Shown: positions 1,552 through 50,353, counted from the stretch's first letter. The stretch: 53,891 bases of DNA from Candidatus Aminicenantes bacterium (GCA_027025175.1 JALVRF010000005.1:1-53891); one strand, 5' to 3'. A program made the numbers and translations. Notes: generated by a model not told the origin, from the letters alone.

Positions 1552-2126
1552 CAGTTATAATTGGGCATTCGCCAGTTCTTTATTATTTTCCTCTGGTTCT
1601 CCCTATACCAATCCAGGTTTTCAATGTATTTTTTCCACCCATCTGCCTTTCCGCTGTCTATGAGCCCCTGGAGCCTCTTAAACCCGGCTAAGATGGCCTC
1701 GGGCCTGGGCATACACCCTGTAATCCAGACATCCACCGGAAGGTAAAGGTCCAGTCTGTTTATGGCATTGTAGGAGTCGTAATACATTCCCCCGTTTATG
1801 GGACAGGCCCCTAAGGCCACCACATATTTGGGGGATTGCATCTGCTCGTAAACCCTTATGACCCTCTTAAGGGTTTTCACCGTGAGGTATCCGCTTATTA
1901 TAAGAACATCTGCCTGACGGGGGGTCCCCACCATCCTCATGCCCAGCCTTTCGGCATCAAACCTGGAGGTGAAGGTGGGACGAAGTTCTATGGAACCGCA
2001 ACCTGTCCCGTAGGCCACCACCCACAGGGACCTCGCCCTTGCCCAGTCGTTTATTTTTCTGAAAACCCCACCGTAGGTCATTTTTTCTGGCTTTTCGTTC
2101 AGGAAATAATTTTTATCCTTTCCCAT
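1548..2126 (-). CDS. NuoB / hydrogenase small-subunit-like [4Fe-4S] subunit, MbxJ/MbsJ-like
   Basis: 192 aa. SLWVVAYGTGCGSIELRP, LGACPINGG and ITGCMPRPE are the Cys-bearing NuoB/HycG motifs. Confidence 0.85.
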   Translation of the reverse strand: MGKDKNYFLNEKPEKMTYGGVFRKINDWARARSLWVVAYGTGCGSIELRPTFTSRFDAERLGMRMVGTPRQADVLIISGYLTVKTLKRVIRVYEQMQSPKYVVALGACPINGGMYYDSYNAINRLDLYLPVDVWITGCMPRPEAILAGFKRLQGLIDSGKADGWKKYIENLDWYRENQRKIIKNWRMPNYNW

Positions 2127-2129
2127 CTC

Positions 2130-3041
2130 TCACCTCACCAAATAAATCCTTACAAGGTCAATGAGCCCAAACAGGCTTGGCCAGGTCCAGAAGAAAAGCA
2201 CAGATTGCTCCAAGCGAAACCTGGGGAAAACATTGGTTATGAAAAGGGGCCACAGGAAAATCACGAAGGTTTTAACGAAAGCCCAGAGCAAATTGCTGGC
2301 CCCTCCTAAGAAAAGGTTCATGAAAAGGAGGTATTTGGCCACAGCGAAAACACTCCTTCCGGAAAACATGTAGGAAAGGAAGGTGGAGCTATATTCTGTA
2401 GGAGGTCCTATGGCTATTTCCTGGGGAGCGAGAACCACCTGAAAGGGATAGGAACCCATCATTCCCAGGAGGCTTATGAAGGCCGCGGCTGCGGCAAAGG
2501 GATGGGTAAAGATGTGCCAGTGGAGAATTCCTCCCTGCTGTGCCCTTACTATTCCTTCAATGGAGGTGGTCTTGTCCGCTATCATGAGGACCACCACAGA
2601 GATGACGAAGGGAAGTTCGTATCCTGCCATCTGGGAAAGTCCCCTGGTAACCCCTATGGGGGCGTGGGGATGACCGCTCTCTGCAGCCCCGAGCGCCATT
2701 CCTAAGCACCCCAGAACCATGAAATACATGAGAACTATCAGGTCACCGCCGAAGGAGAAATTGCTCAGATAGGGATTTCCCACCACAATGGGAACCAGAA
2801 GGAAGGTCCCAGCGCCTCCCACCAAGCGAAACATTGGGGCTAAGTAAAACATGACCCCGTGGGAAATGGCGGTTTTCTTTCGGAATAGTTTCCAAAGGTC
2901 AATGAAATTCTGCCATATGGTCGGTCCCCTTCTGTTCTGCATCCTGGCGGTTATTTTCCTTGAAACTCCGCCTAAGAAAAGCCCATAGGCAATCCCGCCC
3001 AGAAGGGCTAAAAATGCGTAAAATATCTTTGCCCACATCAT
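2130..3041 (-). CDS. NuoH / HycD-like membrane subunit, MbxM/MbsM-like
   Basis: 303-aa polytopic membrane ORF. The N-terminal RKITARMQNRRGPT resembles the NuoH motif. 4-nt overlap with the upstream gene. Confidence 0.8.
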   Translation of the reverse strand: MMWAKIFYAFLALLGGIAYGLFLGGVSRKITARMQNRRGPTIWQNFIDLWKLFRKKTAISHGVMFYLAPMFRLVGGAGTFLLVPIVVGNPYLSNFSFGGDLIVLMYFMVLGCLGMALGAAESGHPHAPIGVTRGLSQMAGYELPFVISVVVLMIADKTTSIEGIVRAQQGGILHWHIFTHPFAAAAAFISLLGMMGSYPFQVVLAPQEIAIGPPTEYSSTFLSYMFSGRSVFAVAKYLLFMNLFLGGASNLLWAFVKTFVIFLWPLFITNVFPRFRLEQSVLFFWTWPSLFGLIDLVRIYLVR

Positions 3042-6000
3042 TTCACCCCTGTAAAGGCATAAAGGATAATGATTGAAATGAGAATCACATAGGCGGCGTA
3101 GGTGTTAACATCCCCTGTGTAAATTCTCCTTCCCATCTCAGCAAAGGCCCCAATCCATTGGTAAATTCCCCTCCATATTTTGCTCACTAAAGGATAAATC
3201 AGCCATTTCACCGCCCTGCGGAAGTGGTCGTAAAGACCATAACCGAAGTGAAGGTCCTCCGGGGCGCGGGGAACCTCTCCTGAATAGCCCACATCCAGCT
3301 GACCAACCTTTCTTATTCTGGCCGAGGTGAGGGCGAAGAATACCAGGGCAAGTAGGAAGGAGCCCACAAGGAAAACCATGAGGAAGAAGGCATTCCAGTG
3401 GCCGAGTTTAGAAACAATCCCCAGGGCCTTATGATAATGGAAACCTGGGTTTTCCATACCCGGAATACCGGAAAGAACTTTGTTTATCGGATTGAGAAGA
3501 AGATTGGGGAAAGCACCCAAAACTCCAAGAGGAATTAAAAGGATTACCTCCACCAAGGCTATTGGCCAGGGGGCTTCCTTTACATTCTCGTTTTCCTCCT
3601 GGAGCTGGCCCAAGAAAACCGCATGGAGAATCTTAAAGCAGTAAAGGAAGGCTAAGGTGGAGGCGAGAAAAGCCACCACGGTTATAAAAATCCATCCCTT
3701 CTCAATGAGGGCCGAATAAAGGAGCCATTTTGCTGCGAATCCCGAAAGGGGAGGAATCCCGGCTAAGGCTATTATGGCAAGAAGGGTGGCAAAGAAGGTA
3801 AGGGGCATTCTTCTAATGAGCCCTCCCATGTGGGGCAGGTAAGAGGTTCCTACCCTGTAAATTATCCCTGCTGCCGCCACGAAGAGAAGCCCTTTGAAGA
3901 TGAAGTGGTTTACCGTGTGATAAAGGGCAGCGTTCCATCCTAAGGGAGTAAAAAGGGAAAGCCCTATAAGGATATAGCCCACCTGTCCCACGGAGGAATA
4001 GGCAAGGAGTTTTTTAAGGTCGTCCTGAAACACTGCAAGGAGGGTCATGAAGAAGGCGGTCAGTGCTCCAGCCCATCCAAGAAGGTAACGAAAACCTGCC
4101 CCGGAAAGAGCAGTAAGCACATAGAGGAAAACCAGGCCAGAGCCGAAAACCCCCATTTTGGACATTATCCCGGAAAGCAGGGGCGTAAATTCGTCGGGAC
4201 TTTCCCCGTAGGCATCCCTGGCCCATATGTGGAGCGGGGAGGTGGCCATTTTAACCAGGAAGGCTAAGGAAATAAGGACCGCTGGAAGAAGGCCGTAAAA
4301 TTTACCCGGAGCCAAACTCAGGGAAGGAAGGAGGTAAATTCCCCCGAGCATGGCATAAGCCCCTGCTGCGGAAAATACTGCATAAATCCAGGCAGCCTTT
4401 TTCCCTTTTCCCATGTTTATAAGGAGGAAGGAAGCCCAGCTCATTATCTCCCAGAAAACGAATACCGAAAGCCAGGTAGAGGAAAGGACAAGTCCAGCCA
4501 TGGAAAAGAGAACAACCAGGTAGGCAGGATAAAAGGATGAGGAAAGTTTTTTAGAGCCGGGATAGGTGGCCAACAGAAGGACCGCACCTCCGAAAAGAAC
4601 AAGGGCAAGGAAAAACCCGTGAAGGTCGGGTTTTATGTACGGGTAAAGGGAATATATCCCATAGGCCAAAACCCCCAACGAAGCTATCCACTGAAGCAGC
4701 CTTGAGGCTCCAAGGAAGTAAACCAGAAGGGAAATTCCAAGAAGGAGCAAAATTTCTGGTTTTACCGGAATGTGAATTTTATCGGTGAACATTCCCCAGA
4801 CTACTGGCACAGAAGCAATAAGAATCAGGGAAGATATTAATGGAGAGGCCAGATTTCTTCCCACCTTCTTTCCTTTCCCCTCGGAGGCTATTCTGTAAAA
4901 GCGGAAGTAATAAACCACCTCGGCCAGGGCCCCAAGAAGAACCAGCCCCACAACCCAGGAATAATTTCTGGGAATAGCGAAGATGAGAAGTATCTTGGCC
5001 CAGAATCCCGGGAAGGGAGGAACCCCTGCTATGGAGAAAACCGAGGTGGAAAAGGAAAACTTGAATACGGGATTGGAGGCAAGAACACCCCTCCAGCCCT
5101 CAATTTTCCTTTCTTTCACGTTGTCCGCAAGGAGAAAAAGGGAGGACTTGCCGAAGGAGTGATTAAAGACCAGAAGGACCATGGCAAGGCCCATCATGAG
5201 CCTTGAGGACGATGAAACCGAAGGGTTCAGGAAGAATCCGGCTACCAGAATAAGAAGTCCCAACTGGGCCACCGAGGAATAACCGAGGAGCCTGCGGACA
5301 TCCTTCTGCCTCCAGGCAAAAAACTGGCTTACTAAATAGGTCAATCCTCCAAAGAGAAGGGCTAAGTGGAAAAAGGAAGGCAGGGGAAGATAATGGGCTG
5401 TTTTTACGAAAACCAGATAAAAGGCCTTTACTGCTGCCCCTGCCAGAAGGGCTACCACCACAGGGTCTGCCCCCTGATAAACATCCAAGGCCCAGCCGTT
5501 TACAGGGAAAACTTCCAGTTCAATAAGAAGCCCGGCAAGAATCATAAGGGTAATAAGGGCCAGGACCGCGGAGGAAATCCCCCCGGCCAGTTTGCCTGCT
5601 ATATCCAGCATGTTCAGACTTCCGGTGGCCTTGTAAAGGAAAACCACTCCTAAAAGTATGAAGGTTGAACTTATGGAGCCTATAACCATGTATTTAAAGG
5701 CGGCCTCAAGGGCCTTTTCGTCCTTAGAAGAAGCCACCAGCCCGTAGGCTGCTATGGAAGTAATTTCCACGAAAACGAACAGGTTGAAAAAGTCTCCGGT
5801 GAAACTTATTCCGGTCGCACCTAAGGAAAGAAGGAGAAACAGGATGAGAGCCTTCCCTTCGGGCTGAGGGAGTCCCCTTACGAACCAGTGGATGGCCCCT
5901 AAAAGGGCGATGGTGAAAATAAGGAATCCTAAGGCAGCCTCCGCTTTTCCTACCAGCAGGTTAATTCCTATGGGAGGGGGAAAACCGCCAATCTTTACCA

Positions 6001-6181
6001 GGATGGGCTTTGCGATTTTGCCTGTGATAAAGCCATAGAAATTAACCCCGGAGACTAAGAAGTCAAATGCAAGGGTAAGGAGGAAGAAAACCCTTGCCCA
6101 TATTCTGTTGTAAACCTGAAGTATGCCTATGAAAAAGGCCGAAGCCAGGGTAACTCCGATTATAATTATGGGATTTACCAT
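3038..6181 (-). CDS. Fused double antiporter-like subunit (two NuoL/M/N - MrpA/D type modules in one 1047-aa protein; MbxH+H' equivalent)
   Basis: Single uninterrupted ORF with two proton-antiporter cores. The first carries KYMVIGSISSTFILLG...LLGYSSVAQLG. The second carries SPLHIWARDAYGESP...LLAYSSVGQVGY...HTVNHFIFKGLLF...LSGFAAKW. Confidence 0.8.
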   Translation of the reverse strand: MVNPIIIIGVTLASAFFIGILQVYNRIWARVFFLLTLAFDFLVSGVNFYGFITGKIAKPILVKIGGFPPPIGINLLVGKAEAALGFLIFTIALLGAIHWFVRGLPQPEGKALILFLLLSLGATGISFTGDFFNLFVFVEITSIAAYGLVASSKDEKALEAAFKYMVIGSISSTFILLGVVFLYKATGSLNMLDIAGKLAGGISSAVLALITLMILAGLLIELEVFPVNGWALDVYQGADPVVVALLAGAAVKAFYLVFVKTAHYLPLPSFFHLALLFGGLTYLVSQFFAWRQKDVRRLLGYSSVAQLGLLILVAGFFLNPSVSSSSRLMMGLAMVLLVFNHSFGKSSLFLLADNVKERKIEGWRGVLASNPVFKFSFSTSVFSIAGVPPFPGFWAKILLIFAIPRNYSWVVGLVLLGALAEVVYYFRFYRIASEGKGKKVGRNLASPLISSLILIASVPVVWGMFTDKIHIPVKPEILLLLGISLLVYFLGASRLLQWIASLGVLAYGIYSLYPYIKPDLHGFFLALVLFGGAVLLLATYPGSKKLSSSFYPAYLVVLFSMAGLVLSSTWLSVFVFWEIMSWASFLLINMGKGKKAAWIYAVFSAAGAYAMLGGIYLLPSLSLAPGKFYGLLPAVLISLAFLVKMATSPLHIWARDAYGESPDEFTPLLSGIMSKMGVFGSGLVFLYVLTALSGAGFRYLLGWAGALTAFFMTLLAVFQDDLKKLLAYSSVGQVGYILIGLSLFTPLGWNAALYHTVNHFIFKGLLFVAAAGIIYRVGTSYLPHMGGLIRRMPLTFFATLLAIIALAGIPPLSGFAAKWLLYSALIEKGWIFITVVAFLASTLAFLYCFKILHAVFLGQLQEENENVKEAPWPIALVEVILLIPLGVLGAFPNLLLNPINKVLSGIPGMENPGFHYHKALGIVSKLGHWNAFFLMVFLVGSFLLALVFFALTSARIRKVGQLDVGYSGEVPRAPEDLHFGYGLYDHFRRAVKWLIYPLVSKIWRGIYQWIGAFAEMGRRIYTGDVNTYAAYVILISIIILYAFTGVK

Positions 6182-6528
6182 TTCAACTCCTTGTATTCTT
6201 CAATTTCAAGGGTTTTCTTTTTGGAATACATGAGCATCACAATGGAAAGGGCCACTGCAGTGACCGCAACTCCTATGACTATGGCCGTAAGGACCAGGGC
6301 CTGAGGAAGGGGGTCCACCACCTTGGAGGATGTGTTAACCAGAAGGTCCTTGATGTTTACGATGGGGGCTGTCCTTCCCCGGATGAAACCCAAGGAAATG
6401 ATGAGCACATTAACACCGGTGTCCATAAGGGAAAGCCCTATAACTATTTTCATTATGTTCCTCTTAACCAAAACCGCATAAAGCCCTATGAGTATCAAGA
6501 GTATAGAAGCGACGAAGAAAGCCATCAT
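6175..6528 (-). CDS. MrpC/MnhC (NuoK-like) subunit
   Basis: 117-aa, three-helix hydrophobic ORF in the position of MrpC/MbxG. Overlaps both neighbours. Confidence 0.7.
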   Translation of the reverse strand: MMAFFVASILLILIGLYAVLVKRNIMKIVIGLSLMDTGVNVLIISLGFIRGRTAPIVNIKDLLVNTSSKVVDPLPQALVLTAIVIGVAVTAVALSIVMLMYSKKKTLEIEEYKELKW

Positions 6529-7217
6529 TCCTCCTTGGTGGTCTTAATCATATCGGTTATAAGGCCCGAAAGTTCGGAGCCCACTTTAAATCCCACCGCC
6601 ACATATATGAGGGGAATTACACCGGCGGAAAACAGGCGGTTCCACTGACCCAGGGGGATTATGTTGTTAGCCAGAAAACTCCCACCCCAGATGAGGCCTG
6701 CAAAACCTATAAGAACGAAGGTAATTCCCGCAAGTCCCTCCACCGTGGAAAGGGCCCTGTGGTTGGGATGGAAGGTAAAGTGGGCAAGAAGCATCAGCAT
6801 TACTGCAGAGGCAATAACAGTTCCTCCCTGGAAACCTCCCCCTGGAGTTAGGTGCCCGTGAATGAATATGTAGGCACCGAAAAGAATAAGGAGAGGATAA
6901 AGGGTTTCCGAGGCGGTTTTGACGATGAGGCTGGCCTCCCTTCTTTCGTATCTTCTCCTGCAACGGCAGGTGGAAAGGAGGAAAGCCAGGGCAGTGGCTG
7001 CCAGGAAAAGCACGGTGACCTCGCCAAGGGTATCAAATCCCCTGTAGTTTACCACTATGGAGGTCACCAGGTTGGAGCCCCTATTCTCCTCAATTCCTTT
7101 ATCCACATAATGCCTGGAAACTCCCCACTTCTCTTCTCCAAAGGGAAAGGAGGAAGTTATTTTGGCCATAAAGAAGCCGAGAACGATGAGGAAAATTATT
7201 GCCAGCCATTTTCTCAT
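6525..7217 (-). CDS. MrpB/MnhB-like membrane subunit
   Basis: 230-aa membrane ORF. NYRGFDTLGEVTVL is the MnhB-domain motif. Confidence 0.75.
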   Translation of the reverse strand: MRKWLAIIFLIVLGFFMAKITSSFPFGEEKWGVSRHYVDKGIEENRGSNLVTSIVVNYRGFDTLGEVTVLFLAATALAFLLSTCRCRRRYERREASLIVKTASETLYPLLILFGAYIFIHGHLTPGGGFQGGTVIASAVMLMLLAHFTFHPNHRALSTVEGLAGITFVLIGFAGLIWGGSFLANNIIPLGQWNRLFSAGVIPLIYVAVGFKVGSELSGLITDMIKTTKEE

Positions 7218-7459
7218 TTCTCGTACCTCTCAGTTTTTCTTATGGCGATTATGAAAATAAGGGTGGTAAGTCCCGCACCTATGGCAGCCTCAGTCATGGC
7301 CACATCAGGAGCCTGAAGATAAAGGTAAACTATGGAAGCCACCAAGGAAACGAAGCCTGCCGCTACCACCGAGGCAAGAAGGTCCTTGGTTTCCACCGCA
7401 TATATGGCCAGACCCAGCATTAGAAATAAAAGAAAAAGCATGAAATACTCAAGAATCAT
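7214..7459 (-). CDS. DUF4040 / MbhD-like small membrane subunit
   Basis: The track ORF extends to 7564, but AAGGAGG lies 7 nt upstream of the ATG at 7459. The product MILEYFMLFLLFLMLGLAIYAV...APDVAMTEAAIGAGLTT resembles the MnhB N-terminal/DUF4040 module. Confidence 0.6.
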   Translation of the reverse strand: MILEYFMLFLLFLMLGLAIYAVETKDLLASVVAAGFVSLVASIVYLYLQAPDVAMTEAAIGAGLTTLIFIIAIRKTERYEK

Positions 7460-7805
7460 TTTCTTCCTCCTTGAGTCCCCTTTCCTTATCCTCGGCATAT
7501 CTATCAAGAACAGAGCCCTCGGCAAGGGGAATGCCCTTGTTATGGGAAGCCCTGGCCAGGGCATGGGAGGATACGGGATTGGTAAGAAGGATGAAAAGGG
7601 AGATTATGGCTGTTTTAAAGAACCACTGGGGATGGTAAATGCCAACCCCCATTATAAGGGAAAGGGCCCCTAAGGTAGTGGCCTTTGTTCCTGTCTGCAT
7701 CCTGTTGTAAACATCCGGCATTCTCAGGAGCCCTATTCCAGCGAGAAACAGAAACAGGGACCCCACCAGTATAAGAAATTCTCCCAGGGCTCGGTAAACC
7801 ATCAA
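7449..7805 (-). CDS. MrpG/MnhG subunit
   Basis: 118 aa. GLLRMPDVYNRMQTGTKATTLG matches the MnhG/PhaG motif. Confidence 0.8.
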   Translation of the reverse strand: MMVYRALGEFLILVGSLFLFLAGIGLLRMPDVYNRMQTGTKATTLGALSLIMGVGIYHPQWFFKTAIISLFILLTNPVSSHALARASHNKGIPLAEGSVLDRYAEDKERGLKEEENDS

Positions 7806-8059
7806 ACACCTCCTTCTAAATACCGGGCAAGGGCTATAACTCCCAGGAAGGCAAGAACCGCATAGACCAGGGCCACATCAAGGTAAATGGCTCTGTGAAA
7901 AATCTGGGAGAAAAGAACAATCATTGCCGTGGTTATGGTGGTGGCTGTATCCAGTCCCACTGCCCTATCGGAAATGGTGGGACCGGCCACAATCCTGTAA
8001 ACCGCCATCACAGTGGCCAAACTGACAAGGGCGAAAACTATTATAAGGAGATTACTCAA
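7802..8059 (-). CDS. MrpF/MnhF subunit
   Basis: 85 aa. YRIVAGPTISDRAVGLD matches the MnhF motif. Confidence 0.8.
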   Translation of the reverse strand: MSNLLIIVFALVSLATVMAVYRIVAGPTISDRAVGLDTATTITTAMIVLFSQIFHRAIYLDVALVYAVLAFLGVIALARYLEGGV

Positions 8060-8537
8060 AGATCACCTCCAGAAACCTCTCAAATCCCTTTACTATTTCC
8101 TGGGTGGCCGCCTCTATGTCAGGACTTTTAACATCTATCCAGTGAATGTAAAGGTACTGACCAACAATATCCACGGAAAGGGTGCCAGGGGTCAGGGTTA
8201 TGGAATTGGCTAAGGCGAGTTTTCCTGCATGAGTTTTGAGCTTGGTTTTTACCTTTACTATACCCGGATTTATGGGGAGCCGGGGATTTATAACCCTCAT
8301 TGCCACATCCAGGTTTGCCTTTACCATGGCGTAAATAAAGTAGAAGAGATAGATGAAGGTAAATAAATACCTTTTGGGCTGAAGCCATTTTTTAGGCTCA
8401 GGACCGGCCACCCCCGGGGCTATCATGCTAATGACCGCGGCGGTTATAAGGCCCACGGAAAGTTCCTGAGGGTCAAAACTTCCGGTTATGGCCACCCACA
8501 GAACGAAAAGCACAACTGTTGAAACGACAACCTTCAT
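8052..8537 (-). CDS. MrpE/MnhE subunit
   Basis: 161 aa with two N-terminal TM helices followed by a soluble domain. It is the first Mrp gene of the operon, in the MbxA position. Confidence 0.7.
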   Translation of the reverse strand: MKVVVSTVVLFVLWVAITGSFDPQELSVGLITAAVISMIAPGVAGPEPKKWLQPKRYLFTFIYLFYFIYAMVKANLDVAMRVINPRLPINPGIVKVKTKLKTHAGKLALANSITLTPGTLSVDIVGQYLYIHWIDVKSPDIEAATQEIVKGFERFLEVIFE

Positions 8538-9163
8538 GCCACACTCCCTTTTTTAATCTTGTATGCCAAATACTCTATTTCCGATGCTATTTCCACATAA
8601 TTAATCACAACCCCGGGTGGAGCCTTTATACCCTGAAGGGCAAAACTGAGGATTCCTTTTATGCCTGCCCTGGAAAGCAGGTTCACCGTCTCCTGGAGGC
8701 CTTCCGGGGGAATAGCAAGAACTGCAATCTGAGGGGCATGTTTTTTGTAAAATCCCTCAATTTCCCCTATGGGTAAAACTTCCACCCCGTTTATCCTCTT
8801 TCCGATTTTTTTCTCATTTCTGTCAAAGGCGGCCAGAACCTTAAAATATGGTATCTCCTTCAGGTGGTGGATAAGGGCCCTGCCCAGGTTTCCGGCCCCC
8901 ACGATTATCACCCTTATGGGTTCGTTTATTCCTATTATCTCCTCTATGGCCTTAGAAAGTTCCCCTACCCTGTAGCCCTTACCCCTGATGCCAAACTCTC
9001 CGAAATAGGAAAGGTCCTTCCTCACCAGGGAACCTGAGATCCCGCAGGTCCGGGCCAGGTCAGAAGACTGGACCCATTCCTGACCCTCAGCCTCAGCCTG
9101 GCGCAGGCACCTGAGGTAGGTGCTTAATCTCCTTATGCTAACTTCAGGTATGGTTATAGCCAT
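8534..9163 (-). CDS. rex: Redox-sensing transcriptional repressor Rex
   Basis: 209 aa. Winged-helix N-terminus RRLSTYLRCL...SSDLA, and a Rossmann motif IIVGAGNLGRAL. ATGA overlap with the MrpE-like gene. Confidence 0.9.
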   Translation of the reverse strand: MAITIPEVSIRRLSTYLRCLRQAEAEGQEWVQSSDLARTCGISGSLVRKDLSYFGEFGIRGKGYRVGELSKAIEEIIGINEPIRVIIVGAGNLGRALIHHLKEIPYFKVLAAFDRNEKKIGKRINGVEVLPIGEIEGFYKKHAPQIAVLAIPPEGLQETVNLLSRAGIKGILSFALQGIKAPPGVVINYVEIASEIEYLAYKIKKGSVA

Positions 9164-9168
9164 TTTTC

Positions 9169-9192
9169 TTGTGAAAGTTCTAACTTAAACAA
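9169..9192 (-). promoter_or_regulatory. Possible Rex-type operator (imperfect)
   Basis: The minus strand reads TTGTTTAAGTTAGAACTTTCACAA, just downstream of the putative -10 and 5 nt before the rex ATG. The right half TTCACAA equals the Rex consensus half-site. The left half is degenerate and the spacing is 4 nt wider than TTGTGAA-N6-TTCACAA. Confidence 0.25.
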
Positions 9193-9199
9193 GGTGAGT

Positions 9200-9227
9200 A
9201 TAATACCATAAGAAGGAAAAAAATCAA
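9200..9227 (-). promoter_or_regulatory. Putative sigma-70 promoter of the rex-mrp-mbx operon
   Basis: Minus strand has TTGATT (9227-9222), a 16-nt spacer, then TATTAT (9205-9200) preceded by TGG (extended -10). Confidence 0.35.
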
Positions 9228-9242
9228 GATTATTTTTAGGTT

Positions 9243-9271
9243 TTGCTCACGCTTCCTTTCCTTATTAAAAT
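9243..9271 (+). promoter_or_regulatory. Putative sigma-70 promoter of the kinase/bEBP pair
   Basis: TTGCTC (9243-9248), a 17-nt spacer, then TAAAAT (9266-9271), about 30 nt upstream of the SD-preceded ATG at 9301. Confidence 0.3.
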
Positions 9272-9300
9272 ATTATATGTTTGCTACAAGGGAGGCTCTG

Positions 9301-10272
9301 ATGATCGAATCCAGTACTTGTGGAATTATACTAAAGATATTGAACTCTCTACCTATAGGTATAGGAATATTTGACAATAACAAGAAACTTATCCTTTCAA
9401 ACGAGGAATTCAAAAAAATCCTGAGAAGCATTGAAAATCAAGAAATATTTTTCAAGGACCCTCCAGCAGTTAACGAACTGTTCATATCCTCTATAAACAA
9501 GATAACAGGTTTCTCCTCCTACAAAACAACCCACGGATGGTTCGTAATAACAAAGGATATAACCAGCAAACAATATATTGAGGAAAGCGAAGACAAGAGA
9601 ATCCTGGAATTATTGGACCATCTTTTCTCCATGGTAAGGCATGAGGTAGGAAATCCTATAAATACCATAAAGTTCTCTTTATCCGTCATGAAAGAAGACA
9701 TAGACAGTTTCTCCAGGGAGAAACTTCTGGAATACATAGATCGTCTCCTTGAAGAAATAGAACAACTTGAAGAAATCCTCCGAGCGATGAAACGGTATAG
9801 CAATTACGGATATGTAGTGGTTAAAAAGGTTAATTTAAACGAGACCCTGAAGAAGGTTCTTCGCATCATGGAAAACGAAATATTGATGAAGGACATAAAG
9901 TTAAAAAGCAATCTCCCCTCTCAGGAAACTATAGTCAAAGCCGATCCTATAGCATTAAATCAGGTATTCACGAATTTATTGAGAAACTCCATAGAGGCCC
10001 TTGAACAATACGATGGCTCTGAAAAACTCATAGAAGTTTTCGTTAAAACCGACGAAGAATTTGCACGAATATATATAAAGGATACGGGACCTGGAATCCC
10101 TGAAGAAATAAAGGACAAGATTTTCTTTCCATTTTTCTCAACCAAAAAGAACGGCTCAGGAATGGGCTTAACCATATCTAAAGGTCTTATAACCGCTATG
10201 GATGGAAAACTGGAGATAAGGAACCATCCCAATGGAGCAATTGCTGAAGTCTCTTTGAAATTATGGAAATGA
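9301..10272 (+). CDS. Soluble sensor histidine kinase (PAS-like N-terminus, HisKA, HATPase_c)
   Basis: The track ORF starts at 9277, but GGGAGG lies 5 nt before the ATG at 9301. H box HEVGNPIN, N box NLLRNSIEAL, G1 DTGPGIP, F FFPFFSTK, G2 GSGMGLTIS. No TM segments. Confidence 0.85.
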   Translation: MIESSTCGIILKILNSLPIGIGIFDNNKKLILSNEEFKKILRSIENQEIFFKDPPAVNELFISSINKITGFSSYKTTHGWFVITKDITSKQYIEESEDKRILELLDHLFSMVRHEVGNPINTIKFSLSVMKEDIDSFSREKLLEYIDRLLEEIEQLEEILRAMKRYSNYGYVVVKKVNLNETLKKVLRIMENEILMKDIKLKSNLPSQETIVKADPIALNQVFTNLLRNSIEALEQYDGSEKLIEVFVKTDEEFARIYIKDTGPGIPEEIKDKIFFPFFSTKKNGSGMGLTISKGLITAMDGKLEIRNHPNGAIAEVSLKLWK

Positions 10273-11630
10273 AGTTATATAACAGGGCGAAAATATTGCT
10301 TATAGAAGACGACAAGAACTTCCTCTTAACTCTGAAGGAGTTCTTAGAAATTAAAGGATTTAAAGTTTCCATATCATCTAAAGCAGGGGATGCCATAAAC
10401 TTATCCAGACACGAACTATACGACATTTTCCTGATAGACCAGAATTTGCCGGACCTTGAAGGAATAGAACTGGCCAAGGAACTACTATCCTTTCAACCGG
10501 AGGCTGCCATATTAATAATAACCGCCTATCCCGATGTAAAGAAGGCAGTAAGGGCGATGAAATTAGGAGTGATAAATTACCTGATAAAACCCTTTGCACC
10601 TGAAGAACTTCTTGATGAAATCCTGAAAACTCTTGAACTCAAAGAATACAAAAGATTAAGGGAACTACGCAATTTCTCGCTGAGAAGAGAAAGAGAAAAT
10701 ATATCCATTATAGGCGATTCCACAGGAGCCCGTGATATTCGGGAATTCATTGAAATTGCGGCAAATTCTCCTAACACCCCTGTCCTATTAACCGGAGAGA
10801 CCGGAACAGGAAAGTCCTTAGTAGCAAGGGCAATCCATTACAACAGCCTTATCAGGGAGAAACCATTTTTAGTGGTAAATTGTGCTGCAATTCCAGAATC
10901 CCTTCTTGAAGCGGAACTCTTTGGCTTTGAGAAAGGGGCATTCACCGGGGCAGAAAAAAACCGAAAGGGGGTATTTGAACTGGCCAATGGGGGAACTTTG
11001 TTTCTGGACGAGATCGGAGACATGCCTCTTCCCATGCAAGCAAAAATCCTCCATGTGCTGGATTCTGGAAGGATAAGGAGAATAGGCGGAGAAAAGGAAA
11101 TAAAGGTAAAAGTAAGAATCATCGCTGCCACCAACAAGAACATAGAAGAACTGGTCAACAGGGGAGAATTCAGAGGGGATCTTTACTATCGCCTGGCAGT
11201 ATTGAGATTTGAGCTCCCCCCTCTCAGGAAGCGAAGAGAGGACATAATCCCCATTGCAGAACACTTTCTGGAACAATTGTCCATGGGAAATCATTATGAA
11301 TTATCTCCCGAAGACAAAAAGGCCCTGGTCAACTACGATTTTCCGGGCAATGTGAGGGAATTGAGAAACATAATAGAAAGAGCCGTAATTCTATCCCGCA
11401 GAAAGGGATACCTCAGCATAAAGGAACTTATAAATAGGTCCCCACTCCGGGAAAACAATAGCGAAAATAAATCTGGTGTCCCCGAAAAACTTCCCAAGAT
11501 TGAGGAAATCATAAAAGAACATGTTCAAAGGGCCCTGAAGATTACCCAGGGAAATAAAACCGAAGCGGCTAAACTATTGGGTATCTCCCTCTCCACATTA
11601 AAGAGATGGCTGAAAAAATGGTCAAATTGA
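10263..11630 (+). CDS. Sigma-54-dependent response regulator (REC + AAA+ + Fis-type HTH; NtrC family)
   Basis: 455 aa. REC domain ILLIEDDKNF...LIDQNLPD, Walker A GETGTGKS, GAFTGA loop, Walker B LFLDEIG, and C-terminal HTH EAAKLLGISLSTLKRWL. 10-nt overlap with the kinase gene. Confidence 0.9.
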   Translation: MEMKLYNRAKILLIEDDKNFLLTLKEFLEIKGFKVSISSKAGDAINLSRHELYDIFLIDQNLPDLEGIELAKELLSFQPEAAILIITAYPDVKKAVRAMKLGVINYLIKPFAPEELLDEILKTLELKEYKRLRELRNFSLRRERENISIIGDSTGARDIREFIEIAANSPNTPVLLTGETGTGKSLVARAIHYNSLIREKPFLVVNCAAIPESLLEAELFGFEKGAFTGAEKNRKGVFELANGGTLFLDEIGDMPLPMQAKILHVLDSGRIRRIGGEKEIKVKVRIIAATNKNIEELVNRGEFRGDLYYRLAVLRFELPPLRKRREDIIPIAEHFLEQLSMGNHYELSPEDKKALVNYDFPGNVRELRNIIERAVILSRRKGYLSIKELINRSPLRENNSENKSGVPEKLPKIEEIIKEHVQRALKITQGNKTEAAKLLGISLSTLKRWLKKWSN

Positions 11631-11666
11631 ACCAAAAAAGATATAATTGAGCGGTTCAATTTGACC
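11620..11666. promoter_or_regulatory. Perfect 14-bp inverted repeat GGTCAAATTGAACC-N19-GGTTCAATTTGACC (candidate bEBP upstream activating sites)
   Basis: Read directly from the sequence. Arms are at 11620-11633 and 11653-11666. The left arm overlaps the bEBP stop codon. The repeat centre lies about 64 nt upstream of the -24 GG. Confidence 0.5.
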
Positions 11667-11705
11667 TCCTGGTTATTTATCTCCGCTTTTTAGAATGCTC
11701 CAGGT

Positions 11706-11720
11706 TGGCATATTTTTTGC
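11706..11720 (+). promoter_or_regulatory. Sigma-54 promoter (TGGCAT-N5-TTGC)
   Basis: TGGCATATTTTTTGC, with GG at 11707-8 and GC at 11719-20 (canonical 12-nt register). Located directly upstream of the 11733 gene and next to a bEBP gene. Confidence 0.7.
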
Positions 11721-11732
11721 TTTTATCATAAA

Positions 11733-12797
11733 ATGATGAGAAGAATACTGATAGTGGATGATGATAAAAACTTTCTGGTCAGTCTGAAGGACGCCCTGGA
11801 GAAATACGAGGGTTTTGAAATTTTAACAGCGAGTACCGGATCAGAAGCCGAAAAAATGCTTCGGGAAGAGCCGTCTGTGGATTTAATCATATCGGACTTA
11901 AAAATGGGAGAAATAGATGGCCTTCAGTTATTAACCTATGTTTCAAGAGAATTCCCTTCCCTGCCTTTCATTCTCATGACAGCATATGGCTCTCCTGCCA
12001 TAAAAAAGAAAGTTCAGGAATTGGGTGCAGGATATCTTGAGAAACCTCTGACCCTAAAAACTCTGATAAATGCTATAGACACCGTTCTTGAAAAAGAAGA
12101 ACCCACAGAGGGCATAATAAAGAATTTTTCAGCCATATCCCTTGCTCAACTTATCCGTCTTGAGGGAAAATCCTGCGATGTACTGATAATTTCGGAGAGA
12201 GGAGAGGAAGGCATCCTGGGATTTTTGTCCGGGGACTTAATATATGCCAGAACCGAAAATCTGGAAGGGGATGAAGCGGCCAAGGAGATTTTCAAATGGA
12301 AAGGGACAAGATTATTTATAAAAGCATACCAAAAGCACCCCCAAAATGTTCAAAGATCCCTTGAAAGTCTGATTCTTGATGCCGCGAGGGAGAAAGATGA
12401 GGAAAAAAACTCAAAATTAAATTATGAAGAAAAAAACAAAAAGGAGGGAAAAATGCCTTTACCTTATGAAGAAATCATGGAAAACTTTAAGGAAATCCCT
12501 GGCTACATTGGAGCAGCAATTTTTAACGTCAATGGAGAACAGTTGGCATTTCACTCACTAAAAGACGACGAAAAACTAAAAAAATATTTCCTTCAGATGA
12601 CCAGCCTATTCGTAGCAGGCGACAAAGCGGCGGAAAAGACAGGAGCCGGAGGAATGGATTTTATTCAGACCGACTCAGACCTGGGGAAATTCCTGGCAAG
12701 ACGTGGAGAAAAATTCATCGCCATGCTCATGCTGGAAGAAAACGGTAACATAGCCTTAGCGAAAGAGGCTCTGGAAGAGGCAGCAGAGAAAATTTAA
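11733..12797 (+). CDS. Response-regulator receiver fused to a PATAN/DUF4388-like and a Roadblock/LC7 (MglB-like) domain
   Basis: 354 aa. REC domain RILIVDDDKNF...IISDLKMGEIDG...MTAYG...EKP. Middle region FSAISLAQLIRLEGKSCDVLIIS...GDLIYA...GDEAAKEIFKWKGTRLFI. After a K/E-rich linker, IPGYIGAAIFNVNGEQLAF...FIAMLMLEENGNIALAK. Domain calls are by eye only. Confidence 0.7.
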   Translation: MMRRILIVDDDKNFLVSLKDALEKYEGFEILTASTGSEAEKMLREEPSVDLIISDLKMGEIDGLQLLTYVSREFPSLPFILMTAYGSPAIKKKVQELGAGYLEKPLTLKTLINAIDTVLEKEEPTEGIIKNFSAISLAQLIRLEGKSCDVLIISERGEEGILGFLSGDLIYARTENLEGDEAAKEIFKWKGTRLFIKAYQKHPQNVQRSLESLILDAAREKDEEKNSKLNYEEKNKKEGKMPLPYEEIMENFKEIPGYIGAAIFNVNGEQLAFHSLKDDEKLKKYFLQMTSLFVAGDKAAEKTGAGGMDFIQTDSDLGKFLARRGEKFIAMLMLEENGNIALAKEALEEAAEKI

Positions 12798-12822
12798 CTC
12801 TACCAGGTATACCGGAATTTCT

Positions 12823-12855
12823 AAAGGGGGGAACCACAGGAAAGTTCCCCCCTTT
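12823..12855 (+). terminator. Stem-loop (12-bp perfect stem AAAGGGGGGAAC / GTTCCCCCCTTT, 9-nt loop), possible terminator
   Basis: Seen directly, 26 nt after the stop of the 11733-12797 gene. There is no separate U-tract beyond the TTT that is part of the stem. Confidence 0.45.
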
Positions 12856-12919
12856 GACATATCATTTATACTTATTATTATTTTTAATCTAATACAACTA
12901 CAATCATAAGGGGTATGAT

Positions 12920-13489
12920 ATGTCATTAAGAATTAAGTTCTCGGATTTACTTACTTTTCTTTCCTTCAAGTCTTCATCCAATAACCTTATCCGCGTAGTT
13001 TTCTCCTTTGATTCTCAATATGGGGAGATGTCGTTCAAAGATGGGGAAATATGGGAAATAATATTCTCTGATATGGAAATGGAGGAGGCTATAAATTTTC
13101 TGCACAACAGAAAAATAGAAGTCAGGGAAATAAGGGAACTCCTCCATAATGACACCATAAAAATACTGTCCGATCTTATCTCGGGGTTTGCAACAGAGTA
13201 CTTAATCTATCATGCTCATAAGGGGGAATTAACATGGGAGGTATCATCCGAGGAGTTAAAGGATCTTTACATAAAATCAAAACAGAAAATACTGGAAAAT
13301 CTGAAAAATAAAGCGGACATGGTCTGGCTTGAAAAAGACAAAACCTCAGGGATTTACGCCCTAAAACTAAAGGATGAGCTCGTGGTCTTTGCTTTCTTTA
13401 ATGCAGCCACCAGAAGGGAATTCTTCAATACCACTTCCCCTTTTCTTCGGGAACTATCAAAGATTACATTAGAATGCTCCGTTGAGTAG
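12920..13489 (+). CDS. Hypothetical protein, possibly PATAN/DUF4388-like N-terminus
   Basis: 189 aa with AAGGGG before the ATG. FSDLLTFLSFKSSSNNLIRVVF...GEMSFKDGEIWEIIF...EEAINFL loosely parallels the middle domain of the preceding protein. Confidence 0.5.
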   Translation: MSLRIKFSDLLTFLSFKSSSNNLIRVVFSFDSQYGEMSFKDGEIWEIIFSDMEMEEAINFLHNRKIEVREIRELLHNDTIKILSDLISGFATEYLIYHAHKGELTWEVSSEELKDLYIKSKQKILENLKNKADMVWLEKDKTSGIYALKLKDELVVFAFFNAATRREFFNTTSPFLRELSKITLECSVE

Positions 13490-14336
13490 AAGACAGACCA
13501 GTTATTTATTGCTTCTTGGTTCTGCCATCTGGGGCTTTGCCTTCGTAGCCCAGAAGGAGGCGATGAAATACATGGGCCCCTTCACCTTTAACGGCGTGAG
13601 GTTCGCCTTAGGGGCTATCGCCCTTATACCCTTTTTGGGCATAGAAGGAGGACGCAGGTTTCCCTGGAGGGGCGTAATTTATCCCGGAGCTCTGGCAGGT
13701 CTTTTCATATTCCTTGGTGTTTCCTTCCAGCAGGTTGGCCTGCTTTATACTTCTGCGGGAAAGGCTGGGTTTATCACAGGACTCTATGTAATTCTGGTTC
13801 CCATTCTGGGTATATTCATAGGTAAGAAAACATCCCTTCCGGTATGGGCAGGGGCTGCCCTGGCCAGCATTGGCATGTATTTCCTGAGCATACAGGGAAA
13901 GATAAGTATAAACAGGGGAGACCTCCTGGTCCTCGCCGGAGCCCTTTTCTGGGCCATTCAAATTCACATAATAGGGAAATTCTCCCCTAAACTCCCGCCT
14001 ATAAAACTGGCCATGGTGGAATTCTGGACGGTTTCTCTCCTCAGCCTCGGACTCGCCTTCCTTACGGAGGAAATTTCGGTTCCGGCCATCGTTAAAGGAT
14101 GGCTTCCCATACTGTATGCCGGTGTTTTTTCCGCTGGAATTGCCTATACAATCCAGGTGGTAGCCCAGAGAAAAGCCCCGCCTTCCCCTGCGGCGGTAAT
14201 AATGAGTCTGGAGTCGGTTTTTGCTGTAATTGGAGGATGGATTTTCCTTGGAGAAGTCCTATCATCCAAGGAAATCCTGGGATGCCTTTTAATGTTCGCC
14301 GGGATGGTGCTGGCCCAGGTAGACTTAAAGGGTTAA
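13482..14336 (+). CDS. EamA/DMT-family transporter
   Basis: 284 aa with about 10 hydrophobic segments. LLGSAIWGFAFVAQK is an EamA-type N-terminus. The start is a TTG, so it is uncertain. Confidence 0.75.
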   Translation: MSRRQTSYLLLLGSAIWGFAFVAQKEAMKYMGPFTFNGVRFALGAIALIPFLGIEGGRRFPWRGVIYPGALAGLFIFLGVSFQQVGLLYTSAGKAGFITGLYVILVPILGIFIGKKTSLPVWAGAALASIGMYFLSIQGKISINRGDLLVLAGALFWAIQIHIIGKFSPKLPPIKLAMVEFWTVSLLSLGLAFLTEEISVPAIVKGWLPILYAGVFSAGIAYTIQVVAQRKAPPSPAAVIMSLESVFAVIGGWIFLGEVLSSKEILGCLLMFAGMVLAQVDLKG

Positions 14337-19881: not shown

Positions 19882-20375
19882 AGATAACCCATGTTTTTCA
19901 GGGCCTGTGTATAAGTTTTCCCTTTCCTTTTCTCCTCAGAGGGAGAACATCCAACATATTTTTTCCCTTCAAGGTAAAGGGAACAGAACGGAAGACCGTT
20001 TTCCTTTATGGCCCTCCATATCTCAAAATCACTTAGCCCTTTAAGGGGAAAAACCTCCTTCACGGGGCTGGGGGTGGGTTCAGGGTTCCTCAGAGGCTCG
20101 TACACTAGGGAAAAACCCGTAGAGGAAAGGTAAGGAAGGAGGAAATCTTCCCTGAGATAACGGCACCAATCCTCCCTTCTCCCTTCAAAATCCTCTGTCT
20201 CCACCTCCACCCTGGTGGCTTTGAACCCGAAGTGCCTTTCTGCTTCTATTAAATAATCGTAAATCTGAGGGGGATAAAATCCCGGATCAACGAACACCAC
20301 GGCATCCACTTCTCTGGCGTAGAGGTGCAAAAGGAGGGTGGTCTCCTTATCTCCTACAAACCACAGTGCCTTCAT
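19878..20375 (-). CDS. Short PAPS-reductase-fold (adenine nucleotide alpha-hydrolase) protein with degenerate PP-loop
   Basis: 165 aa. LWFVGDKETTLLLHL...VVFVDPGFYPPQIYDY and FPLKGLSDFEIWRAIKENGLPFCSLYLEGKKYVGCSP parallel CysH-family blocks. SGGKDS is replaced by VGDKET. Confidence 0.55.
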   Translation of the reverse strand: MKALWFVGDKETTLLLHLYAREVDAVVFVDPGFYPPQIYDYLIEAERHFGFKATRVEVETEDFEGRREDWCRYLREDFLLPYLSSTGFSLVYEPLRNPEPTPSPVKEVFPLKGLSDFEIWRAIKENGLPFCSLYLEGKKYVGCSPSEEKRKGKTYTQALKNMGYL

Positions 20376-21745
20376 CCTAACCCCAGTTTCTTCCAGTAAT
20401 ACCTGAAGGAACGGTATGAAATACCCAGAAGTTCCGCAGCCTTCTTCTTATCACCTTTGGTCTTAACTACCGCAGTTTTCAGAAATTTCCTCATCTCGTC
20501 ATCCAGGTATTCTTCCAGATTGAATCTGCCATCCATTTCAAGGAATTCTTCCATGTTCAACCCGCTGTCGGTTTTCCTCCGGTGAAATATCTTGTCCGGA
20601 AGGTCCTGAACCGTTATGTAAGGACCGGTTTCCATTACCACAGCCCTCTCCACCACATTCTGGAGTTCCCGTATGTTTCCAGGCCAATTGTATGTCTCCA
20701 GAGCAACAAGGGCGTCTTTCTGTATTCCGAGAATCCTTTTGTTGTGCTTTTCGTTAAACTGTTCAATGAAGTGCTGGACAAGAAGGGGTATGTCCTGCCT
20801 CCTTTCCCGAAGGGGAGGAAGTTCTATCCTCACCACATCCAGCCTGTAGAAAAGGTCTTCCCTGAATTCCCCCCTTTGGACAATTTCATCTATGTTCTGG
20901 TTGGTGGCGGTTATTATTCTCACATCAACCTCAATTTCCTCCTCTCCTCCAATCCTCCTTATCCTTTTATCCTGAATAGCAGTAAGGAGTTTTGCCTGCA
21001 TGCTCAGGCTCATTCCTGAAATCTCGTCAAGGAACAGGGTTCCTTCCCTGGCCACCTCAAACAATCCCCTTTTTCTTGAGGCTGCCCCTGTAAAGGCTCC
21101 CTTTTCATAGCCGAAGAGTTCGCTCTCCAGAAGGCTCTCCGGAATGGCGGCACAATTTATGGAAACAAATTTTCGCTTCCTCCTGGGGCTCAACTCGTGG
21201 ATTACCCTGGCAAGAAGGCTTTTACCCGTGCCGCTTTCCCCGGTAATCAGCACATTCACATCGCTGGGGGCTATCCGCCTTACCAGGTCCATAATTTTCT
21301 CCATGGCCGGACTCTTGGCCACCAGTTTTTTTCCCTGGTAAACAGCCCGGAGTTCCCTCCTGAGTTCCTCCACTTCTTTTCTAAGGGAACTTGACTCCAG
21401 GGCTTTTCTGACCACAATTTCAAGGGTTTCAAGGTCAAAGGGTTTCAATATATAATCCTCTGCCCCCATTTTCAGAGCCTTTACTGCATCCTGCACTGAA
21501 GCATAGGCAGTTATTAAAATAACAGGAATTTCAGGGGAAATTTTCTTTATTCTCTCCAGAAGATCAATCCCGTTCAGTTCCCCAGGAAGTTTTATGTCGC
21601 TTATGACGATGTCAAAATCCTCATATAAGGAAAGGGCCTCTTCTGCGGTAACAACTCCCCTGGCAGAATATCCCTTCCCCTGGAAAAAGAGCACCAGTAT
21701 CTCGAGGAGCTGTTCGTCGTCTTCCACCACTAAGATTTTTTCCAT
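20372..21745 (-). CDS. Sigma-54-dependent response regulator, PilR-like by synteny
   Basis: 457 aa. REC domain ILVVEDDEQL...ISDIKLPG, Walker A GESGTGKS, GAFTGA, and HTH AAELLGISYRSFRYYW. Follows the pilB-pilT-pilC-kinase genes. Confidence 0.85.
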   Translation of the reverse strand: MEKILVVEDDEQLLEILVLFFQGKGYSARGVVTAEEALSLYEDFDIVISDIKLPGELNGIDLLERIKKISPEIPVILITAYASVQDAVKALKMGAEDYILKPFDLETLEIVVRKALESSSLRKEVEELRRELRAVYQGKKLVAKSPAMEKIMDLVRRIAPSDVNVLITGESGTGKSLLARVIHELSPRRKRKFVSINCAAIPESLLESELFGYEKGAFTGAASRKRGLFEVAREGTLFLDEISGMSLSMQAKLLTAIQDKRIRRIGGEEEIEVDVRIITATNQNIDEIVQRGEFREDLFYRLDVVRIELPPLRERRQDIPLLVQHFIEQFNEKHNKRILGIQKDALVALETYNWPGNIRELQNVVERAVVMETGPYITVQDLPDKIFHRRKTDSGLNMEEFLEMDGRFNLEEYLDDEMRKFLKTAVVKTKGDKKKAAELLGISYRSFRYYWKKLGLG

Positions 21746-24188: not shown

Positions 24189-24197
24189 TACTACCTC

Positions 24198-25340: not shown

Positions 25341-25350
25341 TTTTCCTCCT

Positions 25351-32494: not shown

Positions 32495-32509
32495 TGGCAT
32501 GATTTTTGC
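32495..32509 (+). promoter_or_regulatory. Sigma-54 promoter (TGGCAT-N5-TTGC) of the pilin gene
   Basis: TGGCATGATTTTTGC in canonical register. The predicted +1 is about 27 nt before the ATG, with AAGGAGG in the leader. Confidence 0.75.
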
Positions 32510-32547
32510 TTCTACTTAGGATGAAAAAATAAACCAAGGAGGTTACG

Positions 32548-50316: not shown

Positions 50317-50353
50317 TTAAATAAAACCCTAAAAAACCACGGGAGGTGAAAAG

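Follow-up and report, generated by a model that had tools for sequence, protein, structure and literature searches.

A predicted two-tier sigma-54 signalling cassette with a REC–PATAN–Roadblock protein in Candidatus Aminicenantes

What can a two-component pair achieve by switching on the gene for a second phospho-acceptor protein? The question is raised by a stretch of 53,891 nucleotides (nt) of DNA from Candidatus Aminicenantes bacterium (GCA_027025175.1, JALVRF010000005.1:1-53891), the whole of which is called the window here. In it, four open reading frames (ORFs), all in the same direction, lie between rex and the gene for an EamA transporter, as a first-pass annotation of the sequence had described. 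The first two genes encode a histidine kinase and an NtrC-type activator, the third a protein of 354 amino acids (aa) that combines a receiver (REC), a PATAN domain (DUF4388/PatA_N) and a Roadblock/LC7-like domain, and the fourth a 189-aa protein with a PATAN domain and no receiver. The third gene is preceded by an exact sigma-54 consensus whose occurrence in homologous loci tracks that of the activator gene. The central proposal of the first-pass annotation, that one two-component pair switches on transcription of a second phospho-acceptor protein, is supported by domain searches, a confident structure model and comparative genomics. The cassette is real, is conserved in a few uncultured bacteria, and is built from known parts, which are listed below with the two flanking genes (coordinates are those of the window).

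8534-9163, minus strand: rex, with Put_DNA-bind_N and CoA_binding domains
9277..10272, plus strand: gene 1, soluble histidine kinase, 331 aa, with a PAS-like N-terminus, a HisKA H-box (HEVGNP) and HATPase_c
10263..11630, plus strand: gene 2, NtrC-type bacterial enhancer-binding protein, 455 aa, with a receiver, an AAA+ sigma-54 interaction domain containing GAFTGA, and a Fis-type helix-turn-helix
11620..11633: putative upstream activator site 1, GGTCAAATTGAACC, centred at about -105 from the predicted transcription start and overlapping the stop codon of gene 2
11653..11666: putative upstream activator site 2, GGTTCAATTTGACC, centred at about -72
11706..11721, plus strand: sigma-54 promoter TGGCATATTTTTTGCT (TGGCAT-ATTTT-TTGCT), exact consensus, between genes 2 and 3
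11733..12797, plus strand: gene 3, 354-aa REC–PATAN–Roadblock response regulator
11739..12092, plus strand: receiver domain of gene 3, residues 3-120, with D9, D10, D55 (phospho-acceptor), T83 and K104 intact
12108..12434, plus strand: PATAN domain of gene 3, residues 126-234, with no alpha-helical insertion and a long helix (210-234) at its end
12462..12794, plus strand: Roadblock/LC7-like domain of gene 3, residues 244-354
12822..12856, plus strand: GC-rich hairpin after gene 3, stem of 13 base pairs (bp), -23.8 kcal/mol, z = -2.2
12854..12881, plus strand: sigma-70-like promoter TTGACA-16-TATTAT ahead of gene 4, 11 of 12 positions matched
12920..13489, plus strand: gene 4, 189-aa protein with a PATAN domain and a probable Roadblock domain, lacking a receiver, with its own Shine-Dalgarno sequence AAGGGG
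13482-14336, plus strand: EamA transporter gene

Domain architecture of the two PATAN proteins

The receiver of the 354-aa protein is matched by the Pfam model Response_reg at 6.5e-23 over residues 5-115 and shows the features of a genuine response regulator. D9, D10, D55, T83 and K104 are invariant in an alignment of 22 homologues, so the domain should be able to accept a phosphoryl group. The AlphaFold2 model of the protein, built with 22 homologues, has a mean predicted local distance difference test score (pLDDT) of 84.6, and when it is submitted to Foldseek it retrieves CheY-like receivers with target-normalised template-modelling scores of about 0.9. The adjoining segment, which had been read by eye as PATAN-like, is a member of the DUF4388/PATAN family (PF14332; 1.8e-9, 38.1 bits against a cut-off of 25, residues 126-225), and the means of pLDDT over ten-residue blocks are 83-95 across residues 131-220, falling to 64 for 221-230. 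No DNA-binding or enzymatic output domain was found among the Pfam domains of this protein.

The C-terminal domain had likewise been assigned to the Roadblock/LC7 class, and this assignment holds at the family level, while the single protein remains below the Pfam threshold. A profile of 16 such C-terminal domains, compared with the PDB, recovered the Roadblock proteins 7f8f (3e-8), 7f8m (5.9e-8) and 7yh1 (2.2e-5), followed by dynein LC7 chains and then, weakly, by MglC (0.057), the best matches being archaeal and dynein-type Roadblock proteins and not MglB. Six of the 16 family members match Robl_LC7 at E <=1 (best 1.2e-5), and the homologue from locus L011, a public metagenome-assembled genome (MAG) of Nitrospirae bacterium JdFR-85, matches it at 2.8e-16 (59.4 bits) in the same position as in gene 3. 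An exhaustive phmmer search with residues 236-354 returned only 22 representatives among 1.84 billion; among 18 new relatives of the domain, five have DUF4388, four have a receiver and three pass Robl_LC7. In the AlphaFold2 model, residues 244-353 form a helix (244-253), two strands (258-265 and 270-275), a long helix (279-303), three strands (310-315, 318-324 and 328-334) and a final helix (340-353), thereby displaying the helix, two strands, long helix and three strands that define the Roadblock fold, with block means of pLDDT of 82-94 from residue 251. Two results limit the assignment: gene 3 on its own scores 0.029 with Robl_LC7 (PF03259; 14.6-16.9 bits against a cut-off of 23, residues 246-331), and comparison of the whole model with the PDB by Foldseek gave only receivers among the 50 matches listed, so that it is silent on PATAN and Roadblock and did not confirm the Roadblock fold. 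Nevertheless, the PDB profile matches, the score of the L011 homologue, the modelled topology and the distant relatives that pass Robl_LC7 together argue for a Roadblock identity of the family.

The 189-aa product of gene 4 had been thought to repeat the PATAN part without the receiver. It has no match in Pfam; its residues 4-71 align with the PATAN profile of the gene 3 family at an hhalign probability of 93-94% (E ~1e-7), which bears out that view, and the likeness appears to extend into a probable Roadblock half. When represented by a nine-sequence alignment, the C-terminal half matches a broad 40-sequence Roadblock profile over 80 columns (E = 2.3e-5), and the low-confidence model of the protein shows the secondary-structure order of Roadblock. 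A comparison of this half with a narrow Roadblock profile was not significant (hhalign probability <1%) and was set aside. What counts against a Roadblock domain here is that the match to the broad profile has a probability of only 76% and that the single-sequence AlphaFold model is poor (pLDDT 48.7); a Foldseek search with this model gave no match at E <=0.001, and a profile search of the PDB gave none. Structure prediction, to which the first-pass annotation had looked for a decision on both proteins, thus yielded a confident model with Roadblock topology for gene 3 and an unsatisfactory one for gene 4. The gene 4 product is best described as a PATAN domain joined to what is probably a divergent Roadblock domain, in effect a version of the gene 3 protein without the receiver.

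The gene 4 family is tiny or fast-evolving. Word-indexed searches for homologues yielded only two and then six cluster representatives; others were recovered through gene context. In the loci compared, which are designated by L numbers, a homologue is present in every close cassette examined except L005, and it occupies three different positions. In the window and L006/L007 it follows gene 3; in L001 and L003 it comes before the kinase gene (185-191 aa, 23-28% identity); and in L008 (5995-6555) and L009 (5987-6550) it stands in the place of the kinase gene, overlapping the start of the activator gene. In the window, gene 4 seems to have its own expression signals. The hairpin at 12822-12856, kept in L006 with a compensatory G:C to A:T change, probably terminates the transcript or stabilises its 3' end; it has a weak T-tail and was not called by a terminator scan. 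The candidate promoter at 12854-12881 is the best sigma-70 match of the region, where the total count of such matches is not above that in shuffles, and its TTGACA is retained in L006.

Predicted sigma-54 control and conservation of the cassette

The combination of a kinase, an NtrC-type activator and sigma-54 control is textbook, and the front end of the cassette conforms to it. Gene 1, for which 9301 is an alternative start, matches HisKA (E = 1.1e-8) and HATPase_c (1.1e-19), and the motifs HEVGNP, NLLRNS, DTGPGI, FFPFF and GSGMGL of a HisKA-type kinase are all readable in its translation. A PAS_7 match over residues 22-50 is weak (0.0059), and a hydrophobic segment was looked for in the translation and none was seen; the description of this protein as a soluble PAS-like histidine kinase thus stands. 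Gene 2, the start of which overlaps the stop of gene 1 by 10 nt, matches Sigma54_activat (2.4e-67), Response_reg (1.1e-22), AAA_lid_14 (4e-19) and HTH_8 (1.2e-9), and its translation contains both GAFTGA and the Walker A motif GETGTGKS, so that it has the domain content of the NtrC family that had been ascribed to it.

The promoter between genes 2 and 3 agrees exactly with the consensus, and the pattern TGGCAY-N5-TTGCW has three matches in the window against 0.04 expected from shuffles. The two 14-bp pseudo-palindromes recorded upstream of it lie 33 bp (three helical turns) apart and are 100% complementary, that is, a perfect inverted repeat of each other. Motifs resembling GGTTCA-N3-4-TGAACC recur in two to three copies upstream of the promoter in L001, L003, L005, L006, L010, L011 and L092. 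For a comparison across loci, the 200 nt upstream of each REC–PATAN gene were scored against TGGCAC-N5-TTGCW, with a maximum of 11. Sites scoring 9-11 were found in all 13 loci with an adjoining activator gene (the window, L001, L003, L005, L006, L008, L009, L010, L011, L035 and L092, together with divergent paralogous cassettes in L003 and L009), whereas none of 13 loci from Desulfobacterota MAGs has such a -24/-12 site; in these, the kinase gene is immediately next to the REC–PATAN gene, with no gene for an activator. The promoter therefore tracks the activator gene, and this constitutes strong comparative evidence that gene 3 is a direct sigma-54 target of the activator encoded by gene 2.

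The same promoter implies an unusual transcript. The GC of its -12 element is at 11719-11720, so that transcription is predicted to start at about 11732, and the ATG of gene 3 is at 11733. No Shine-Dalgarno sequence is present in the 5' region of gene 3, and there is no alternative in-frame start, because the first strand of the receiver begins at residue 3. With the promoter so near the ATG, the mRNA should have little or no leader. In the other loci, 22-33 nt separate the beginning of the promoter from the start codon, so that 5' leaders of about 1-8 nt are predicted, the start codon having been reassigned for this comparison in L008 and L092; the exception is L010, where the promoter lies about 50 nt before the ATG and a Shine-Dalgarno sequence is present. 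A sigma-70 reading of the gene 3 promoter (TTGGCA-18-TAAAAT, 11705-11734) was rejected, as its -10 element overlaps the ATG. For the homologues in L005 (8001, P0003) and L092 (1436, P0018), public records place the start codon either within the sigma-54 promoter or ahead of it; the N-termini as annotated (e.g. MVVAIEII...) are probably overextended, with translation really beginning a few codons farther on.

Type IV pilin genes are classic sigma-54 targets, and a second exact site, TGGCATGATTTTTGCT at 32495-32510 (plus strand), lies upstream of a type IV pilin gene (32548-33003, plus strand; N-terminus MKRQKGFTLIELLIVVAIIG), where it is an internal positive control for the promoter motif. For the pilin gene, the leader is about 27 nt long and the Shine-Dalgarno sequence is AAGGAGG, and the predicted leaderless layout is therefore specific to gene 3. 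At this locus, selection of the longest ORF takes the opposite strand (32512-32997, minus), which is probably wrong. The third exact site, TGGCATTTTTCTTGCT at 50302-50317 (plus strand), is located about 36 nt before 50354-51802, which encodes a 482-aa protein with PD40 (TolB-like beta-propeller) repeats.

Full-length relatives of gene 3 comprise about ten cluster representatives at 49-90% identity and more distant ones at 27-32%; a contig scan keyed on the receiver motif returned mostly distant relatives, the best being from a Nitrospirae MAG at 41% identity. The co-occurrence for which the first-pass annotation proposed a search extends to three genes, the fourth being present in the varying positions described above. 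The order kinase, activator, REC–PATAN–Roadblock regulator recurs amid unrelated flanking genes in L001, L003, L005, L006/L007, L010 and L011, with homologous kinases at the same position in L001, L003, L005, L006, L010 and L011. In L012-L025 and L034/L091, a kinase gene is directly beside the REC–PATAN(-Roadblock) gene with no activator gene, and these activator-free pairs indicate that the homologous kinases are dedicated partners of such regulators. The architecture is not unique, being detectable by Pfam in at least one public MAG (L011). A full-text literature search found no paper describing a REC–PATAN–Roadblock protein and no experimental work on one, although Makarova et al. 2006 might list the architecture. 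The reading of the protein as an uncharacterised, rare variant among PATAN response regulators is well supported.

Several of these loci carry further related genes. Additional stand-alone Roadblock genes are found in L001, L003, L009 and L091. In L003 (11811-16447) and L009 (12211-17063), a sigma-54 promoter of its own precedes another REC–PATAN–Roadblock gene; after this gene come one or two H-NOX (HNOB) genes and a Roadblock gene standing alone, the whole forming a paralogous cassette divergent from a second kinase/activator pair. L001 has H-NOX and stand-alone Roadblock genes on the minus strand (1318-2996), and no second REC–PATAN gene or second kinase/activator pair was found with this cluster; the window has no H-NOX gene. 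The H-NOX genes of these loci suggest that gas (NO/O2) sensing feeds into this regulator family. In assembly GCA_054004935.1, a window-like cassette (L007) occurs together with another one of 53% identity (L009), reflecting either paralogous cassettes in the lineage or a mixed bin.

As to the neighbourhood of the cassette in the window, the EamA gene has TTG as its called start and shares 8 nt with the end of gene 4. L006 and L007, otherwise syntenic, lack it; there a DUF498 gene comes straight after the 189-aa gene, and the EamA gene looks like a lineage-specific insertion. On the other side, rex is divergent from the kinase gene and precedes a cluster on the minus strand (1009-9163) of the Mrp/Mbh-type multisubunit cation antiporter or hydrogenase-like kind, with MnhE, F and G, MbhD/E, a long Proton_antipo_M subunit and NuoB/C/H-like subunits; the adjacency of rex is common only to L006 and L007. 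Farther away, a small operon (38418-40283, plus strand) downstream of a LolA-like gene encodes an extracytoplasmic function (ECF) sigma factor, a zf-HC2 anti-sigma factor and a third protein that matches bactofilin weakly and below threshold (23.9 bits; cut-off 27.9). A scan of the window against Rfam matched no RNA family.

A two-stage model and its alternatives

We cautiously favour, as somewhat probable, a two-stage feed-forward model of the cassette. In the first stage, the cytoplasmic PAS-like kinase would autophosphorylate upon some intracellular cue and then phosphorylate the NtrC-type activator at its receiver. The activator would bind both palindromic sites (at about -105 and -72) and open the sigma-54 promoter at 11706-11721 by ATP hydrolysis, giving rise to a leaderless or near-leaderless mRNA for the 354-aa protein. 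In the second, the freshly made REC–PATAN–Roadblock protein would be phosphorylated on D55, most likely by the same kinase, as the activator-free loci, which pair such kinases with this regulator, suggest. The result would be a coherent feed-forward loop, in which output requires induction plus continued kinase activity. Since it lacks a DNA-binding or enzymatic domain, the 354-aa protein may be an adaptor that is controlled by phosphorylation and contacts other proteins through PATAN and Roadblock, with the 189-aa paralogue as a likely partner, probably by Roadblock-Roadblock dimerisation. By analogy with cyanobacterial PatA-type regulators, the best single guess for the target would be the type IV pilus motor, namely the N-terminal domain of PilB, and PilC. 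Candidates for both are encoded in the window:

25351-27102, minus strand: pilB, T2SSE with an MshEN N-terminal domain
24198-25340, minus strand: pilT
22989-24188, minus strand: pilC
21730-22989, minus strand: PilS-like kinase gene
20372-21745, minus strand: gene for a PilR-type sigma-54 activator

Some observations run counter to this model. The promoter, 13 nt from the ATG of gene 3, would demand leaderless translation. The cassettes of L008 and L009 have no kinase gene and carry a gene-4-like gene instead. The receivers of gene 3 and of the activator are 27.3% identical within a locus and 27.3% between loci, with no locus-specific co-variation. Finally, the pilB-pilT-pilC-pilS-pilR operon (20372-27102, minus strand) is indeed present 7 kb away as had been pointed out, but it neighbours the cassette only in the window and in its closest relatives, L006/L007, and does not occur in the flanks of L001, L003, L005, L008, L009 and L010, so its proximity is not a conserved feature and the link of the cassette to motility is one of analogy.

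The kinase-less cassettes of L008 and L009, the lack of co-variation between the two receivers, and the second kinase/activator pairs a few kb away in L003 and L009 would all be accommodated if the cassette formed a two-input AND gate, in which its own kinase controls only the activator, and hence expression, while another kinase, encoded at a distance, phosphorylates the gene 3 receiver. We consider this unlikely, as 13 activator-free loci with homologous kinases directly beside REC–PATAN(-Roadblock) genes point to a direct partnership, and as the window's two receivers have similar alpha-1 helices (DKNFLLTLKEFLE versus DKNFLVSLKDALE). The gene 3 protein might alternatively serve as a phosphate sink or negative feedback element, draining phosphoryl groups of the kinase away from the activator, or using PATAN and Roadblock to bind either of the two. 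It would then shut off its own induction to produce a pulse, serving mainly to shape how the kinase and activator respond rather than to signal outward. The intact receiver, the absence of an enzymatic or DNA-binding output domain, and the fact that in most loci this regulator is the only gene clearly under the activator-dependent promoter are in keeping with such a role. A stand-alone receiver would suffice for it, however, whereas PATAN and Roadblock domains have been kept at 49-90% identity across the clade, and Desulfobacterota pair the same type of regulator directly with a kinase where there is no activator to feed back on; this explanation therefore appears rather improbable.

An output through a small GTPase has to be weighed against the two-stage model as well. 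The Roadblock proteins MglB, MglC, RomY and CvnB work with small GTPases, and the family profile weakly matches MglC. Genes for MglA and for MglB homologues frequently lie close to those for PATAN proteins (PMC4316618, citing Makarova et al. 2006). In the products of genes 3 and 4, the Roadblock domains might be a platform for a GTPase-activating protein (GAP) or guanine nucleotide exchange factor (GEF) acting on an MglA-like GTPase encoded elsewhere in the genome, with the receiver placing GTPase control under two-component signalling and PATAN supplying localisation. The cognate linked GTPase expected of an MglB-like GAP is not seen in the window or in the loci examined. EngA/Der is the sole GTPase encoded in the 54-kb window, in agreement with the first-pass annotation, which had found no Ras-like GTPase partner there; the called genes in the annotated flanks of L001-L010, L091 and L092 include no GTPase Pfam family. 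A tblastn search for MglA and MglB, a weak test given the query sequences used, found nothing, for MglA in the window and L001-L010, so that the linked MglA-like GTPase envisaged earlier did not materialise in any locus examined. Together with the affinity of the domain to archaeal and dynein-type Roadblock proteins rather than MglB, this makes an MglB-like role quite doubtful. Since stand-alone Roadblock genes and REC–PATAN–Roadblock/H-NOX/Roadblock operons recur, a linked GTPase is a less plausible partner than another Roadblock protein of the system.

Returning to the two-stage model, a bolder version of it, which we offer as a long shot, is that the 354-aa protein pairs with its receiver-less paralogue to make a Roadblock heterodimer, switched by phosphorylation and independent of a GTPase, by which a membrane machine, for example the type IV pilus motor, would be positioned or gated. 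If so, the fusion would be a Rosetta stone, indicating that PATAN works together with MglB-like Roadblock modules as a single physical entity, and two-component systems, with the H-NOX gas sensors of the paralogous cassettes, would gain a direct line into cell-polarity control in deep-branching uncultured bacteria.

Comparison with known systems

Nothing reported here overturns current understanding. What is new is the demonstration, at the family level, that the C-terminal domain belongs with Roadblock proteins, the probable PATAN–Roadblock nature of gene 4, the correlation of promoter and activator (13/13 versus 0/13), and the conserved layout predicted to be leaderless, together with the lack of a conserved linkage to the pilus operon and of a linked GTPase gene in the loci examined. 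To our knowledge, PATAN domains have been studied only in cyanobacteria, and we know of no explanation for the genomic association of PATAN with MglB-type Roadblock genes. In this context, the joint action of both domains could be studied in a compact setting, a natural PATAN–Roadblock fusion governed by a receiver and a clean sigma-54 switch, and the cassette also makes it possible to ask if a Roadblock domain functions in the absence of a small GTPase. The strict correlation of promoter and activator is a clear case study of a simple kinase-regulator pair gaining a transcriptional tier, and the conserved arrangement predicted to be leaderless is a testable oddity among sigma-54 promoters.

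The closest known counterparts of the gene 3 protein are the PatA-type regulators (PatA, PixG, PixE, LsiR and PilG of Synechocystis), which share with it a CheY-like receiver, a PATAN output and the absence of a DNA-binding or enzymatic domain. DUF4388 was annotated in more than 8000 proteins in 2021, and PATAN, the output domain of these cyanobacterial regulators, binds the N-terminal domain of PilB1, and PilC, an interaction known for Synechocystis proteins only (bioRxiv 10.1101/2021.06.11.447907). The gene 3 protein is not a strict PatA-type regulator, because the order of domains is reversed: PATAN precedes the receiver in the PatA type, whereas here REC (5-115) is followed by PATAN (126-225) and Roadblock (244-354). 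It further differs in lacking the helical insertion of PATAN, in possessing the additional Roadblock domain, and in its predicted sigma-54- and activator-dependent expression, whereas PatA-type regulators belong to a chemotaxis-like operon. The window does encode PilB (with MshEN) and PilC, but this linkage is not conserved elsewhere.

MglB, MglC and RomY of Myxococcus xanthus and CvnB of the actinobacterial conservon belong to the same fold class as the C-terminal domain of gene 3, for which dimerisation would be expected. In contrast to these modules, the gene 3 protein has its Roadblock domain fused with REC and PATAN in one polypeptide, is closer in sequence to archaeal and dynein-type Roadblock proteins, and has no linked MglA-like GTPase in any locus examined here. 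A receiver fused to a Roadblock/LC7-related output is also found in REC–NitrOD3 of Thaumarchaeota, as reported from a genome census only (PMC5847659). These proteins are archaeal and without PATAN, and their likeness to gene 3 is at the level of the fold family only.

The regulatory logic of the cassette has its own parallel in sigma-54 cascades such as that of Pseudomonas, where the enhancer-binding protein FleQ induces another two-component element, fleSR. In both cases an NtrC-family activator with GAFTGA drives the -24/-12 promoter of another response-regulator gene. The cassette differs from the FleQ/fleSR type in that the induced regulator is not a transcription factor, in its compactness, with the target immediately downstream of the activator gene, and in a transcript that is predicted to be leaderless.

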